A stretch of DNA of 64,000 bases. Source: an uncultured Chloroflexia bacterium (lineage in GTDB: Bacteria; Chloroflexota; Anaerolineae; B4-G1; SLSP01). The position numbers were made by a program, and so were the translations under genes. The notes under the pieces are model-generated. The model did no database searches and was not told where the DNA came from. It saw only the letters and a list, made by a program, of their open reading frames with translations. Where the stretch lies: the NCBI GenBank assembly GCA_963751345.1, contig CAVVUS010000010.1, forward strand, positions 128,001 to 192,000, in the 5' to 3' direction. Below, piece after piece: positions 15,864 to 24,697 of this stretch (its first letter is position 1; every line of letters starts with the position of its first letter).

Positions 15864-18800
15864 ATGTCAGTAGCAGACCTTGGCGTTAAATCTTACGCTC
15901 GTATTGCTAGCGCATTGCCGCTACCGGGTCTTGTAGAGATGCAGTTGCAGTCCTATGGATGGCTGCAAGAGGAGGGATTGTACGAGCTGTTTGACGAGGT
16001 TTCACCGATCGACAGCTTCAATGGCCTTCTGAGTTTGTACCTGCCCGGCCTGAAGGCCAAGGAGGCAGGTTTCAACCTGAAGTATCGCTTCGGCGAGCCG
16101 AAGCACGATCAGCAGGAATGCCTGGAGCGCGATCTCACGTTCGCCGGTCCTTTGTACGTGCAGGTTGCGCTTGTCAATCGAGAGACGAGTGAGATCGTCG
16201 AGCAGGAGATCTTCTTGGGCGATCTCCCGCTGATGACCGAGCACGCGACGTTCATTATCAATGGGACTGAGCGTGTCGTGGTCAGCCAGTTGATTCGGTC
16301 TCCGGGCGTCTATTTCGGTCTTGAGGAAGATGCCGGGCGGCGGCTGGCCAGCGCGAAGCTGATTCCCGACCGCGGTGCCTGGATGGAGTTCGAGACCCGC
16401 AAGTCCGGATATCTCACCCTGCGGTTCAACCGCAAGCGCACCATTCCGGTCACTATCTTCCTGCGCGCGCTCGCTGCCGTGGATGACCCTTTGCACGGCG
16501 ATCTGTTGACCGTGGGCGAGGACGATGAGCTCATCGAGCTCTTCCGAGAAGCCGACAACGACCCCGATCATCCCTGGATTTCGGACACGATTCGTCAGGA
16601 ACCCACGTGGGATCTGAAGGCCGGCCGCAGTGTCGCACAAGAGGCCTTGATTGAGTTCTACCGCCGCATGCGCCCTGGCGATCCTCCCACGCTGGAGAAC
16701 GCCGAGGAATACATGGTCTCGCAGCTCTTCGATCCTCAGCGCTATAACCTGCAAGAGGTGGGACGCTACAAGCTCAACCAGCGCATGCAGATCACCGTCC
16801 CGATGTCTATCCGGACGATCACGAAGGATGACTTCGTTGCGTTGGTTCGGCGGATGATTCACATCAATAACGGGGTTGCAGGTCCGGACGATATGGACCA
16901 CCTCGGAAATCGTCGTGTCAAGACGGTAGGTGAGCTGGTCCAGGCGAAGATTCGCATTGGACTAGTCCGTATGGAGCGGGTCGTTCGGGAGCGTATGAGC
17001 ATCCGGGATGAATCCCCGACGCCCGTGAGCCTGATCAATATCCGTCCTGTGGTGGCCTCGATTCGCGAATTCTTCGGTTCGAGCCAGCTTTCGCAGTTCA
17101 TGGAGCAGACCAATCCTCTCTCCAGCCTGACGCACAAGCGCACGCTCTCCGCGTTGGGTCCGGGCGGTCTGCGACGTGAGCGCGCGGGCTTTGATGTGCG
17201 CGATGTGCACCACAGCCACTACGGTCGTATTTGTCCCATCGAGACGCCTGAGGGACCCAATATCGGTCTCATCGGCCGACTCAGCACGTACGGTCGCGTC
17301 AACGACCTTGGGTTTATCGAGACCCCTTATCGGCGCGTGATCCGCACCGTGCCGAACACCGTCGATCAGCTGACCGGTGAGATTCTGCGCGAGGACCTCG
17401 AGAACCCTGAGACGGGTGAGGTCGTAGCGACTGCCGGTGCGACGATTACGCCGGAGTTGGCGGAGACCATTGCGGCCATGTCGTTACAGGATCCGGTGCG
17501 GATCAAACCACGTGTCACCGAGGAGATCACCTACCTCTCGGCAGATCGGGAGGAGCCCTACACGATCGCTCAGGCCAATGCCTCACTGGACACAAACGGG
17601 CGCTTTCTCGACGATCGTGTCGTGTCCCGCAAGGGTGACGGCTATACTTTCGCGCCTCCGGATCGTATCGACTATATCGATGTCGCGCCGATCCAGATGG
17701 TCGGTGTGTCCGCGGCGTTGATCCCGTTCCTGGAGCACGACGACGCGAACCGTGCGTTGATGGGATCGAACATGCAGCGCCAGGCTGTGCCGCTGATCAG
17801 TCCTCAAGCACCCATCGTGGGCACGGGGATTGAGCGGGCTGCAGCCCTCAACTCGGGGTTGGTCATCACCTCACGCGAAGCAGGCACCGTGCTGAGTGCC
17901 TCGGGTGACCGTGTGGTTGTCCTTCAGGACGATGGTGAGACCGCCACCTACACCCTGCAGAAATACTGCGCGGTCGAACCAGAGTACGTGCATCGACCAG
18001 CGTCTGGCTGTGGTCAAGGGCCAACGTGTTGAGGCCGGCGACGTCCTTGCAGACAGCTCCTCGACAGAGGATGGACAGCTCGCCCTGGGACAAAACGTCC
18101 TCGTGGCGTTTATGTCGTGGGAGGGCGGTAACTTCGAGGACGCGATTTTGCTGAGTGAAGACCTGGTCCGCAAGGATCAGTTCACCTCCGTGCACGTAGA
18201 GAAACACGAGCTTGCCGCTCGGGATACCAAACTGGGTCCCGAAGAGGTCACGCGCGAGATCCCCAATGTGTCGGAGGAGGCGCTTCGCGATCTCGACGAA
18301 GAGGGTATCGTTCGTATCGGCGCCGAAGTCGGCCCGCTGGACGTGCTCGTAGGCAAGATCACGCCCAAGGGTGAGAAGGAGCTTACGCCTGAGGAGAAAC
18401 TGCTCCGGGCAATCTTCGGTGAGAAGCTGCGCGACGTCAAGGATACCAGCTTGCGGATGCCGCACGGTGCTCACGGCAAGGTTGTGGATGTCAAGGTGTT
18501 TGATCGCGAGGAGTATCGTGATCTGCCCGCAGGTGTGGAGAAGGTAGTTCGCGTCAACGTGGTCCAACGACGCAAGATCACCGAGGGCGACAAGATGGCC
18601 GGTCGTCACGGCAACAAGGGGGTCATCTCCCAGATCGTGCCGATCGAGGATATGCCTTTCCTGGCGAGTGGTCGCGCGATTGACATCATCCTCAATCCGC
18701 TGGGTGTGCCGGGCCGGATGAATATCGGACAGGTACTGGAGACCCATCTTGGTTGGGCGGCACATCGGCTTGGATTCAGCACGGTGACGCCTGTCTTCGA

Positions 18801-19770
18801 CGGGGCGAATGAGCAGGAGATCGCAGCGGAGTTGGCACGGGCTTGGTTGATAGATCAGGCCTGGGATGACATTACGGAGCAGACCTGGACGTGGTTGAAG
18901 GCACAGGAGTATCCGTTGGAGTCGCTCGTCGATGACGAAGAGGCCCGGCTGATTTACGTTGCTTCGTGGTTAGCACCCAAGGGTTATGATGTGGATCGGC
19001 TCCGCGATGACAGGATCTATGCACGGCGCTCTGTGCTCCGTGAGTGGCTCCTGGATTTTGGTTACGATCCTGACGCCCTGCTTTCGTTCGAAAACGATGG
19101 GCGGTCCGTGCCCGAACGCCAGGCTGCTGATCACAGAGCGCAGGCGGTCTGCCTACGTCTGTGGATGGAAGCCCATGGAGAGGATGTTCAGGATCAGTCG
19201 GACGATGACGTGATCCTGCTGGCGACACAGTACAGTCAAGAGCACGACGAAGCTCTGCCGACGTTGGGTAAGATGATCTTGTACAACGGGAAGACGGGTG
19301 AGCCCTTCGATCAGCCGGTGACGGTAGGCATCATCTATATGATGAAGCTCGCGCACCTGGTCGAGGATAAGGTTCATACGCGGTCGACGGGCCCGTACTC
19401 GTTGGTGACCCAGCAGCCTCTGGGCGGCAAGGCGCAGTTCGGTGGTCAGCGCTTCGGAGAGATGGAGGTATGGGCGCTCGAGGCCTATGGCGCAGCCTAC
19501 ACTCTGCAGGAGATGCTGACGATCAAGTCGGACGACGTGCAAGGCCGTGTCAAGGCGTATGAGTCGATCGTGAAGGGCCTGCCGATCGAGGAACCGGGGA
19601 TCCCTGCTTCGTTCAAGGTGCTGGTTAAAGAGCTGCAGAGCTTGGCGCTTTCGGTGGAGGCTGTGACTGACTCCGGCGAGGTGCTGCACTTTGGTCGTGA
19701 CGACCGTCGTGCCCAGCTTCCGAAGTTGGGGATGGGCTTGCTTGGGTTGACACCGCAGAATGTGCGTTAG
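15864..19770 (+). CDS. rpoB: RNA polymerase beta subunit, single +1 frameshift near 17967 (probable sequencing error)
   Basis: [34 protein letters not shown] and GGQRFGEME. The two ORFs join at [12 protein letters not shown]. Confidence 0.97.
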
Positions 19771-19782
19771 GGATTCGAGGAG

Positions 19783-19810
19783 TTGACCTATTCAGGCTTT
19801 ATGGTAGAAT
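19783..19810 (+). promoter_or_regulatory. sigma70 promoter for the str operon
   Basis: TTGACC-16bp-TAGAAT with an extended TG. Confidence 0.7.
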
Positions 19811-19984: not shown

Positions 19985-20407
19985 GTGCCGACGATTAACC
20001 AATTGGTGCGGAAGGGCCGGAAGCCAAAGGCACGGCAGCCGAAGTCTCCAGCACTCGCCTATAATGTGAATACCAAGCGGGGCGGCAGGCGTACACGTGT
20101 GAAGGAAGGCAACCCCCAAAAGCGGGGTGTCTGCACCATCGTGCGCACGACGACGCCGAAGAAGCCCAACTCTGCGCTGCGGAAGATCGCCCGTGTGCGG
20201 CTTTCCAATCGTCTCGAGGTCACGGCCTATATCCCCGGCGAGGGGCACAACCTTCAGGAGCACTCGGTCGTGCTGGTGCGTGGCGGGCGTGTAAAGGACC
20301 TTCCCGGTGTGCGCTACCACATTGTGCGTGGTGCGTTGGACTGTGCGGGTGTGAGCGGGCGCCATCAAAAGCGCTCCAAGTACGGCACCAAGTCCGAGCA
20401 GAAGTAG
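19985..20407 (+). CDS. rpsL: 30S ribosomal protein S12
   Basis: [20 protein letters not shown] and [10 protein letters not shown]. Confidence 0.99.
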
Positions 20408-20424: not shown

Positions 20425-20895
20425 ATGTCAAGACGTAATCGTCCAGCTAGGCGAGTGGTTGAGCCCGATATTCGCTACAATAGCGTGCCCATGCAGAAGT
20501 TCATGAACCGGATGATGCGTGGCGGCAAGCGGAGCATAAGCCAGCGTATTATGTATGAAGCACTGGATCAGGCAGAGGCGCGCGCGAATAAGCCGGCAGT
20601 GGAGGTTTTCAACGAGGCGATGCAGAACGTGTTGCCCTCGGTCGAGGTGAAGCCCCGTCGTGTGGGTGGGGCGACCTATCAGATCCCGGTTGAGGTGCCC
20701 GAATACCGGCAGCTTGCACTGGCGATCCGCTGGTTGTTGGCGGCGGCGCGCAGCCGTCCGGGGCGGGGTATGGCCTCGAAACTGGCCGCGGAGTTTGTCG
20801 ATGCCGCGAATGGTGTCGGGTCTGCGGTAAAGAGGCGTGAGGACACGCTGAGGATGGCGGAAGCTAACCGAGCATTCGCCCACCTCCGCTGGTAA
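20425..20895 (+). CDS. rpsG: 30S ribosomal protein S7
   Basis: RRVGGATYQIP and MAEANRAFAH. Confidence 0.99.
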   Translation: MSRRNRPARRVVEPDIRYNSVPMQKFMNRMMRGGKRSISQRIMYEALDQAEARANKPAVEVFNEAMQNVLPSVEVKPRRVGGATYQIPVEVPEYRQLALAIRWLLAAARSRPGRGMASKLAAEFVDAANGVGSAVKRREDTLRMAEANRAFAHLRW

Positions 20896-20967: not shown

Positions 20968-23040
20968 ATGGCCGAAGCACATTCACTTGAGAATATACGC
21001 AACATCGGGATCATTGCCCACATCGATGCGGGCAAGACCACGACGACCGAACGGATCCTTTTCTACACGGGACGCACACATCGTCTCGGTAATGTGGATG
21101 AAGGTACCACGATTACCGATTGGATGGACCAAGAGAAGGAGCGCGGGATCACGATCACGTCTGCGGCTGTCACCTGTTTCTGGCACCGATGCCAGATCAA
21201 CATCGTTGACACGCCCGGACACATCGATTTTACCGCGGAGGTCCAGCGCAGCCTGCGGGTGCTCGACGGAGGCGTCGTAGTTTTCGACGGCACCGCCGGT
21301 GTGGAGCCTCAGTCCGAGACGGTATGGCGACAGGCCCAGGAGTTCAAAGTCCCTCTGATTGCGTTTGTGAACAAGATGGACAAGTTGGGAGCTGACTTTT
21401 CCTACGCCGTCCAGACGATTCACGAGCGCTTGAAGGCCAATCCCGTCCCCATCCAGTGGCCCATTGGGGCCGAGGGTGATTTCCGGGGAATGGTTGACCT
21501 GATTGAGTGGCGCGGCGTCTTCTGGTCCGACGAACTCGGCCAGACATCGGAGTTCGGTCCTATTCCGTCAGAGGTTGAGGAGAGGGCGCGAGAGGCCCGC
21601 GAGGCGATGATCGAGTCGATCGTCGAGACCGATGATGACCTGACCAATCGCTATCTGGAGGGTGAGGAGATCTCGGCTGACGAGTTACGCGTCGCACTTC
21701 GGGCCGCGGTGATCTCCGGGCAGATGCAGCCCGTGTTGTGTGGTTCTTCGCTACGAAACAAGGGCATTCAGCCCCTGTTGGATGCGATCGTTGATTACTT
21801 ACCCTCTCCATTGGATGTCCCGCCGATCACGGGGGAGAATCCAAAGAAGGAGCGGATTGAGGAGCGCCCAGCGGATCCATCGGCTCCGTTGGCAGCGCTG
21901 ATCTTTAAAATAGCTTCGGATCCTTATGCGGGACGTCTGGCGTACTTCCGGATCTATTCCGGCACGCTGACCCGCGGGAATGTCTACCTGAATGCAGGTA
22001 AGCAGATCCGGGAGCGTGTCACCAAGTTGCTGAGGATGTTTGCCGATCGCCGAGAGGAGGTCGACGAACTGATGGCCGGCGACATTGGGGCAACGGTAGG
22101 CCTGAAGAACACGGTCACCGGCGACACGCTCTCAGCGATGAACGCGCCGATTGTTCTGGAGCCGATCGTCTTTCCGGAACCGGTGATCGCAATCGCTGTG
22201 GAGCCCAAGACTGTGGCTGATCAGGATCATCTGGCGGAAGCGTTAGCGCGACTGGCGGAAGAAGATCCCACCTTTCAAGTCCAGATGGACGAAGGGACCG
22301 GCCAGACGATTCTGCGGGGCATGGGCGAGCTTCATCTGGAGATCCTGGTAGATCGAATGCTCCGGGAGTTTCGGGTTGAGGCAAATGTCGGTAAGCCACG
22401 CGTTGCGTATAAGGAAACGGTTACACAAACCGGTCGTTCTGAGGTAGTTTTCGATCGGATGTTGGCCGGTAAACCCCAGTATGCTCGGGTAGTGCTGGAA
22501 GTAAGCCCGGCAGAGGATGGGAAAGCATCCGGGTTTGTTAATCTACTGCGTCCGCAGGACCTGGCAGCTCAATTCGTTGAGTCTGTCAGAGCTGGGGCGC
22601 TAGAGTCGTTGGATAGTGGCTTGATTGCCGGATACCCGATGGTGGGTATCGAGATCCGGTTGGTAGATGCGAGTGCGGATCCGGTGTTGTCGTCAGAAGT
22701 CGCGTTTCGGGCTGCAGCAGCGCAGGCTTTTCGCCAGGCAGTCGAAGTCGCGCAGCCCGTGGTGTTGGAGCCGATGATGGATGTAGAGGTGGTGATGCCG
22801 GAAGGGTTCGTCGGTGAGGTACTCGGCGATCTGAACGCTAGAGGTGCCGAGATCAGACTGATGGAGCCCAGAGCCGGCGGTGGTCAGGCAATTCGGGCGT
22901 TTGCTCCCCTGGCCAGGATGTTTGGATATGCCACAGATCTGCGAAGTCTGACGCAAGGACGAGGTACATTCACGATGGAGTTTCACCATTACGAACCGGT
23001 GGACTCCCGGCAGATGGATGCCATCGTGTACGGCTATTGA
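20968..23040 (+). CDS. fusA: Elongation factor G family GTPase (divergent domain IV)
   Basis: [20 protein letters not shown] and NKMD motifs, in the str-operon position. Confidence 0.95.
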
Positions 23041-23141: not shown

Positions 23142-24362
<1,221 letters not shown>

Positions 24363-24388: not shown

Positions 24389-24697
24389 ATGGCTAAACAA
24401 CGAATTCGCATTCGGTTGAAGGGATACGATCATCGCATTCTGGACGAGTCTGCCCGGCGGATCGTAGAGGCTGCTGAGCGCACGGGTGCTCATGTTGCAG
24501 GTCCGGTGCCCCTGCCCACAAGAATCGAGCGGTTCACCGTTCGACGTTCTCCATTCATCGATAAGGACACGCACGAGCATTTCGAGATTCGTACACACAA
24601 GCGTTTGATCGATATCCAGGATCCGGATTCGAAGACGATTGACACGCTGATGCGACTCAATATGCCGGCCGGTGTGGATATCGAGATCAAACTGTAG
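24389..24697 (+). CDS. rpsJ: 30S ribosomal protein S10
   Basis: [10 protein letters not shown] and GPVPLPT. Confidence 0.99.

Follow-up and report, generated by a model that had tools for sequence, protein, structure and literature searches.

The str-operon fusA gene (rpsL-rpsG-fusA-tuf) at positions 20968-23040 of the window, by which we mean the whole 64,000-nucleotide stretch analysed here from an uncultured Chloroflexia bacterium (class Anaerolineae), encodes an elongation factor G (EF-G) that has lost the conserved residues of both loops at the tip of domain IV. This tip is among the most conserved features of bacterial translation and is held to be essential for fast, frame-keeping translocation. 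The gene, here called type A, is conserved in its tip-less state across the order and is under purifying selection, and the same genome encodes further EF-Gs which retain the tip and have changed in other domains. From these observations we infer which copy may do which job: on the sequence evidence there is about an even chance that tip-dependent translocation has moved to a paralogue and that the str copy mainly serves RRF-dependent ribosome recycling.

Where the canonical tip reads Q-S/T-G-G-x-G in loop I and G-S-Y-H-x-V-D in loop II, type A was found to read M-L-A-G-K-P and A-S-A-D-P-V-L, and it thereby lacks the conserved domain IV tip of EFG-I. The phmmer alignment with Thermus thermophilus EF-G was gapless over both loops, residue n of the window protein corresponding to n+2, and it placed M498 against Q500, A500-G501 against G502-G503 and D571 against H573. 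We take H573 and Q500 of T. thermophilus to be the equivalents of Escherichia coli H583 and Q507. The loss of both tip motifs, the conserved His included, had been claimed in the initial annotation and is borne out by the exact sequence and the gapless alignment; both loops lie exactly where that annotation had put them.

The loss was real and unusual. From named public genomes 80 EF-G loci were fetched and 79 of them were parsed (L057 yielded no open reading frame, ORF); the five tip positions (Q, GG, H, D) were intact in all 71 EF-Gs from outside Anaerolineae, and the tip His was absent from 8/8 loci with titles of the Anaerolineae type (L040-L046 and L060). It was also absent, with degenerate loops, from 29/29 orthologues (L011-L039), one from each of 29 related genomes in the order, of which 17 belong to the genus of the window and 12 to two other families; G016 gave no A-type match. 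In a collection of 60 tip-degenerate str copies, loop I had the canonical 11 amino acids in 60/60 and loop II in 59/60, so the tip was changed by substitution and not by deletion. At the positions that match E. coli S587, S588 and E589, the same copies have S in 53/60, S or T in 57/60 and E in 55/60. A search of mainly open-access literature, main texts only, found no description of a tip-degenerate str-operon EF-G in Chloroflexi or Anaerolineae; the lists of EF-Gs by genome that accompany PMC3150367 and PMC4342817 may bear on the point.

Outside the tip, type A had the features of a regular EF-G. It scored 904.6 bits on the EF-G equivalog TIGR00484 (cut-off 659.4), and five domains with the G' insert were obtained, all above cut-off (PF00009, PF22042/PF03144, PF14492, PF03764 and PF00679). 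Against T. thermophilus EF-G, phmmer gave 812 bits and about 55% identity; at such identity to a solved EF-G the canonical fold of type A is not in doubt. Sites conserved in at least 95% of 151 canonical EF-Gs were then compared between the types, a site being counted as kept when it was present in at least 80% of the members of a type (Table 1); other thresholds gave the same picture. The type A loss was confined to domain IV, in support of the initial annotation, with 153/155 sites kept in the other four domains together. It is clear from the counts that the losses are complementary: A gives up the domain IV tip only, and the paralogues retain the tip and change elsewhere.

Table 1. Universal EF-G sites kept in each domain, by EF-G type
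Type	G	II	III	IV	V
A (60 tip-degenerate str copies)	86/88	23/23	27/27	14/24	17/17
B	75/88	19/23	22/27	21/24	12/17
N	83/88	22/23	23/27	22/24	15/17
D	46/88	15/23	17/27	22/24	12/17

Within the genus, the ratio of non-synonymous to synonymous substitution rates (dN/dS), which is rough since synonymous sites are near saturation, was 0.04-0.12 in the other domains and the rest of domain IV, 0.04 in loop I, 0.28 in loop II and 0.39 in a third domain IV segment (residues 525-535). The new form of loop I was kept within the genus. Of the paralogues, A evolved most slowly in each of the three genome sets compared; it is under purifying selection and is not decaying as a whole.

The genome of the window (5.4 Mb in 49 contigs, 93% complete, 5.6% contamination) contains four EF-G-like genes, A, B, C and D, and a single RRF gene. 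The B gene (C44:65525-67543; L002:1432-3540) encodes 702 amino acids, is 45% identical to A, scored 819.8 bits on TIGR00484 and reads KQSGGHGHY and DGDYHEVDS at the tip. The D gene (C6:22227-24254; L003:1498-3558) encodes 686 amino acids with 37% identity to A, scored 870.4 bits on the EFG-II-type model NF009381, reads KQSGGAGQF and DGKEHPVDS, and is an EFG-II. In its G domain the C gene (C11:49311-51359; L004-L007) shares 68% identity with A, and its tip carries HQTGGSGHY and GGRVHEVDS. Three frame changes break it into four segments that lie in three reading frames, and it is 67-82% identical to an intact orthologue in genome G005. The C orthologue in a 96%-similar genome (G002, C5:348038-350082) was split too, and the broken copy is either a pseudogene or the product of repeated read errors. 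Paralogues with intact QSGG and YHxVDS motifs, as the initial annotation had anticipated, are thus encoded elsewhere in the genome, namely B, D and the frame-broken C.

The motifs AH[IV]DAGKT, RGITI and DTPGH were common to A, B, C and a further type, N, of other families. The switch I form of A recurs in B, C and N and is therefore no mark of the tip-less copy. In each of the 18 D-type copies examined, switch I was RRxIS-like (RRQISL for RGITI in the copy of this genome) and DTPGY stood in place of DTPGH, so that the catalytic His is missing; the D-type tip was strictly conserved (HKKQ[ST]GGAGQFAEV; DGKEHPVDS).

Three side observations concern these paralogues. B- and C-type EF-Gs have a basic C-terminal tail of 23-26 residues past the conserved Tyr, against medians of 18 in the 71 EF-Gs from outside Anaerolineae, 17 in A and 16 in N. 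The mitochondrial translocase EF-G1mt was reported to have a C-terminal extension that clashes with RRF (PMC8203779), and by analogy the B and C tails may be of interest as a lead only. Another EF-G-like type was seen in L294 (G064:C439) and L299 (G076:C132), 41-43% identical to A and 48-51% to D, with DTPGY and a tip reading GRHKKQTGGRGQFGD and DGSYHPVDS. Finally, a B-type-like EF-G (YKKQSGGRGHFAEV) was present in G158 of another Chloroflexota class (L301, L302), a genome whose str-operon copy is intact, so that the B type also occurs beyond the tip-less lineage.

To follow the tip through the class, 110 genomes at least 92% complete were taken together with G000, the genome of the window (111 in all); 109 gave a match, and G099 and G122 gave none at 1e-170. 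For each genome the best EF-G match and every second EFG-I-like match were taken, the loops were read, and rpsG and tuf neighbours were sought. Where a second EFG-I-like copy was found (26 genomes), the tip His was lost in 22 and kept in four (G051, G055, G064 and G126); where no second copy was found (83 genomes), it was lost in five (G022, G043, G057, G091 and G147) and kept in 78. Across the class, tip loss thus goes with a second EFG-I copy, in line with the initial annotation. The degenerate copy was the rpsG-linked one in 22/22 genomes, including the single-contig G109, and the copy elsewhere was intact, mostly of N type (RLV[KR]QTGGHGQFAHV; DG.YHEVDSS). Among the first 234 sequences, all 73 non-str copies kept 5/5 tip residues and 64 of the 161 str copies did not. 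The frame-broken L157 and C11 copy do not enter the alignments; the fragments L158 and L159 were dropped, and so were L291, L293 and L295-L297, which did not match the P-loop pattern (L291 being the D-type gene of G057).

In other Chloroflexota classes, two of 115 genomes had two matches, both with intact str copies (G241 and G259, flagged as unpublished and with a single match each, were counted in this tally only; without them it is 2/113), and the tip was intact in 16/16 single-copy genomes fetched. In family f12, two apparently single-copy genomes (L181 and L183, from G131 and G058) showed GG changed to GT in loop I of the str copy (RQ[IV]GTRNHY) with the loop II His kept; this is possibly an early or partial stage of tip change, no second EFG-I copy having been detected there.

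The phylogeny was built with FastTree (LG+gamma) from 234 sequences and rooted on the D clade (EFG-II). Type A was nested among the str-operon EF-Gs of Anaerolineae (Shimodaira-Hasegawa-like clade support 0.976). Two other types arose inside the same class-level clade, beside intact str copies of particular families, namely N (23 tips, support 1.0) and C (4 tips); they look like in-class duplications or transfers. B formed a separate long-branched clade (22 tips, support 1.0) whose position relative to other EFG-I was weakly supported (0.633); its best 120 listed database relatives, all at least 66% identical, were named as Anaerolineae or Chloroflexota EF-G. In phmmer searches T. thermophilus EF-G was the best match for both A (812 bits) and B (705 bits), human EF-G2mt following at 513 and 449 bits. 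Judged by context, tree and scores, A is best described as a derived EFG-I orthologue.

The label EF-G2 given in the initial annotation therefore does not hold in the family sense. Membership of spdEFG2/mtEFG2 was rejected on the 513 bits to EF-G2mt vs 812 to T. thermophilus EF-G (the tree held no spdEFG reference), and A fell below both NCBIfam EF-G2 cut-offs (472.1 vs 890 and 456 vs 1000). Nor is it an EFG-II, with RGITI kept and NF009381 (705.4 bits) below TIGR00484 (904.6), or a ribosomal protection protein of the Tet(M)/Tet(O) type (tet_protect 391.7 bits, cut-off 775). That annotation had also named grouping with canonical translocases as an outcome that would speak against its reading; A does group with them in the tree, which weighs against that reading, and the same placement is also expected from a recent division of labour within the lineage.

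The operon setting is given in Table 2. A location in the str operon is the context by which EFG-I is defined (Margus et al. 2011, PMC3150367). Scanning by consensus match only, we found a promoter-like site upstream of rpsL at 19783-19810 (10/12) and no terminator-like site in either of the intergenic gaps. Assembled contigs of an RNA library (run X2, small) covered 22269-22525 with 5 differences and 22555-22752 with 3, at about 98% identity and including both loops; consisting of assembled contigs only, such cover shows neither transcription nor gene ranking, and uncovered parts carry no meaning. The codon adaptation index (CAI) was 0.714 for A, 0.764 for B and 0.776 for D, with a background mean of 0.748; since the ribosomal-protein references reached only 0.722 (leave-one-out), the genome has no usable translational codon bias and CAI is uninformative on expression.

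Table 2. Type A fusA, its parts and the neighbouring genes, in window coordinates
Feature	Position	Strand	Remarks
fusA type A (str-operon EFG-I, degenerate domain IV tip)	20968..23040	+	single ORF, 690 amino acids; TIGR00484; five Pfam domains
G domain with G' insert (residues 8-280)	20989..21807	+	PF00009; P-loop, RGITI and DTPGH intact
Switch I region, G-domain motif (residues 41-51)	21088..21120	+	same form in types B, C and N
Domain IV (residues 477-595)	22396..22752	+	PF03764; sole domain losing universal conservation
Loop I (residues 495-505)	22450..22482	+	Q to M498, S/T to L499, first G to A500, G to P503
Third domain IV segment (residues 525-535)	22540..22572	+	G529/P533-type conservation lost; relaxed; tip position assumed
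Loop II (residues 567-577)	22666..22698	+	G to A568, Y to A570, H to D571, D to L574; S575-S576-E577 retained
Domain V (residues 599-684)	22762..23019	+	PF00679; canonical, 17/17 universal sites
rpsL (ribosomal protein S12), str operon gene 1	19985..20407	+	PF00164, 1.2e-38
rpsG (ribosomal protein S7), directly upstream of fusA	20425..20895	+	PF00177, 7.5e-55
tuf (EF-Tu), downstream of fusA	23142..24362	+	Pfam
Ribosomal protein S10 gene, after tuf	24389-24697		Pfam

Upstream of the operon, rpoB (15864-19770) was present in two overlapping frames (15864..18032 and 17896..19770), with rpsL directly after it. The second part carries Rpb2 domains 6 and 7, and the frame change, near an AAA run at about 17960-17975, is probably an assembly read error. 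No rpoC-sized ORF was seen beside rpoB or anywhere in the window (no fitting ORF of at least 600 amino acids). The G+C content of the window was 0.546 in the first 2 kb, 0.63-0.67 at 2-16 kb and about 0.58-0.60 over the ribosomal-protein region at 16-42 kb.

Taken together, the data suggest the following course. Type A is the vertically inherited str-operon EFG-I, still under purifying selection and predicted to be a folded, ribosome-binding and GTP-hydrolysing five-domain factor. Selection has been lost on those residues with which the tip reaches into the decoding centre in translocation, corresponding to Q507, G509/G510 and H583. The tip was most likely lost after tip-intact EF-G genes had been gained, here B, C and D and in other families the N type. 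A tip-intact paralogue would take over most of the tip-dependent work, that is, fast and frame-keeping translocation, and A would be kept mainly for a task that tolerates tip substitutions, the splitting of post-termination ribosomes with the single RRF. In E. coli, deletion of loop I and all single-site loop I mutants, as well as most single-site loop II mutants, were reported to keep RRF-dependent polysome breakdown, and H583K, S588P and E589A to abolish translocation (PMC4666400).

Several observations, however, weigh against this course. In the same E. coli work S588P and loop II deletions impaired recycling (PMC4666400), so loss of the tip would not be neutral for recycling either. Type A is closer to canonical EF-G than B is (904.6 vs 819.8 bits), and it sits in a highly expressed operon. 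Among 29 other genomes of the order, each at least 95% complete, A was found in 29, D in 28 (the exception being G027) and B in 18; B was not found in G043 of family f1, in G019, G027, G031 and G034 of f2, or in G026, G028, G038, G039, G040 and G041 of f3. A search with B as query over nine order genomes and G057 of another family recovered A and D only in eight and A only in two (G022 and G027). In 10 of the 11 order genomes in which B was not found, the sole tip-intact copy found was an EFG-II without the catalytic His, and in G027 no EF-G copy besides A was found. In genus g5, where B was likewise not found, the tip was the fastest-changing part of A (identity 0.68 vs 0.93 for the rest), the reverse of canonical single-copy EF-Gs, in which the tip is more conserved (0.74 vs 0.64); there, either the tip-less A or D must translocate. 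The translocating paralogue postulated in the initial annotation is thus matched by tip-intact copies in this genome, but the postulate does not hold for the lineage as a whole, B not having been found in 11/29 order genomes.

Two further points belong on the same side. D-type EFG-II was found in 105/111 class genomes irrespective of the tip state of the str copy, and the motifs of D and its rate relative to A were similar with and without B; D was therefore rejected as the specific cause of tip release. D alone does not release the tip from selection, and D is unlikely to be the main translocase. The other point is kinship. On a tree of str copies built without the domain IV columns, the minimum number of changes was 10-11 for tip state and 12-14 for second-copy presence, and an independent-pairs test gave seven pairs, about two in the expected direction, none against and about five ties (p 0.5), a test without power. 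Since the genomes are related by descent and this test is powerless, the raw two-by-two table cannot be read as a probability. An approximately unbiased test (LG+G4, quick tree, the group being defined once the trees were known) rejected a single origin of tip loss, with the 27 degenerate rows in one clade, only marginally (p 0.039, log-likelihood difference 101.5), and we do not lean on it. The association of tip loss with a second copy is large and consistent over 13 families but is not statistically established after kinship, and its clustering by descent counts against the proposed course.

The strongest alternative, which we consider possible but doubtful, is that A continues to serve both as housekeeping translocase and as recycler, either through a re-evolved tip or through slower tip-less translocation tolerable in a slow-growing lineage, the extra copies being accessory. 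Its str-operon site, its most canonical score and its slowest evolution among the paralogues agree with this, and so does the strong conservation of the new loop I within the genus. A is, moreover, the sole EF-G with a canonical GTPase centre in the 11/29 order genomes in which B was not found, and in four class genomes and two of other Chloroflexota classes two copies occur, neither of them decayed. On the other hand, the residues lost from A were invariant in the 71 EF-Gs of other lineages and were kept in the 78 class genomes with the His and no second EFG-I copy (apart from GG to GT in the two f12 genomes), and H583K was reported to abolish translocation in E. coli (PMC4666400). Constraint on loop II and segment 525-535 is three to four times looser than on the remainder of the protein, and tip sequences vary widely between families, which looks like released constraint and not like one new solution; decay also goes with the second copy (22/26 vs 5/83).

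It is less probable still that A has taken on another job as a ribosome-associated GTPase, such as splitting of hibernating or stalled ribosomes, quality control or a stress function, with translocation and recycling left to the other copies; we hold this to be unlikely. An intact body and GTPase with a changed tip, together with several paralogues per genome, would fit such a role, and EF-G with RRF was reported to act on 100S ribosomes (PMC7196661). Nothing specifically indicates it, however, and it sits poorly with the housekeeping position and with the at least 95% of universal residues kept outside domain IV; in genomes where B was not found, all remaining EF-G work would fall to D, which has no catalytic His. 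As to an assembly or frameshift artefact in the loops, or a decaying type A pseudogene, the assembly does carry frame errors (rpoB split at about 17896-18032 and the three frame changes of the C11 copy), but the same loop state in 29 independent genomes excludes an assembly artefact, the loops are canonical in length without any frame change, and purifying selection over the whole gene speaks against a pseudogene, so that this explanation is hardly credible.

The division of labour between A and a tip-intact paralogue thus remains our preferred reading. Sub-lineages in which only the tip-less A and an EFG-II were found comprise 6/7 high-quality f3 genomes, three genomes of f2 (G027 having neither B nor D) and one of f1. 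For these we suggest tentatively, and at somewhat less than even probability, that translocation runs either without a canonical tip or through a GTPase-deficient EFG-II as the principal translocase. If true, either mode would be an exception, in free-living bacteria, to a rule taken to apply to every bacterial EF-G. Type A itself can be seen as a natural set of separation-of-function alleles with matched paralogues, the str copy having lost its tip across many families of the class with the other domains canonical. Graded intermediates are at hand in families with Q-x-GG kept but no His and in genomes with two intact copies. With such a set it can be asked which EF-G activities depend on the tip, how duplicate copies come to share out translocation and recycling, and whether an EFG-II can carry translation without another tip-intact copy. 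For annotation, the warning is that a fusA gene in the str operon is not always the translocase. Margus et al. assumed the str-operon copy to be under the same constraints in all bacteria and judged that EFG-I has no substitute in any other single subfamily (PMC3150367).

Among known systems, canonical EF-G of T. thermophilus and E. coli shares with type A the five domains, the GTPase motifs, the operon position, the loop lengths and about 55% identity; unlike it, type A is without the tip Q, first G, third G, H and D, all invariant in the 71 EF-Gs of other lineages. The E. coli tip mutants lose translocation and mostly keep recycling (PMC4666400), and type A resembles a multi-site version of them, with the difference that it is a natural, selected state across the order, whereas the engineered mutants are toxic when overexpressed. 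EFG-II, represented by T. thermophilus EF-G-2 and Bacteroides EF-G2, is where type D belongs (RRQISL, DTPGY and an intact tip), while type A keeps RGITI and DTPGH.

Other parallels come from systems with two specialised factors. In EF-G2mt the second loop I Gly is changed to Asp and in Borrelia burgdorferi EF-G2 the first is changed to Ala, which was proposed as a reason why they do not translocate, and both work beside a separate translocase paralogue (PMC8203779). A500 of the window protein is the same change of the first Gly to Ala as in Borrelia, which supports the comparison with recycling EF-G2 made in the initial annotation. Unlike EF-G2mt and spdEFG2, the window protein is an EFG-I, it has lost the loop II His as well, and its partner B, found in 18/29 order genomes, is not universal. 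Pseudomonas aeruginosa offers the other parallel, as its EF-G1A and EF-G1B are likewise EFG-I paralogues: EF-G1A, from the str operon, was 75-fold weaker than EF-G1B in poly(Phe) synthesis and seems to work together with RRF, the non-str EF-G1B being the elongation factor (PMC3832671). There the str copy is the one that gives up translocation, as proposed here for type A. That pair is 84% identical (PMC3832671), whereas A and B of the window's genome share 45% identity, A has an evidently degenerate tip, and the pattern extends through the class.

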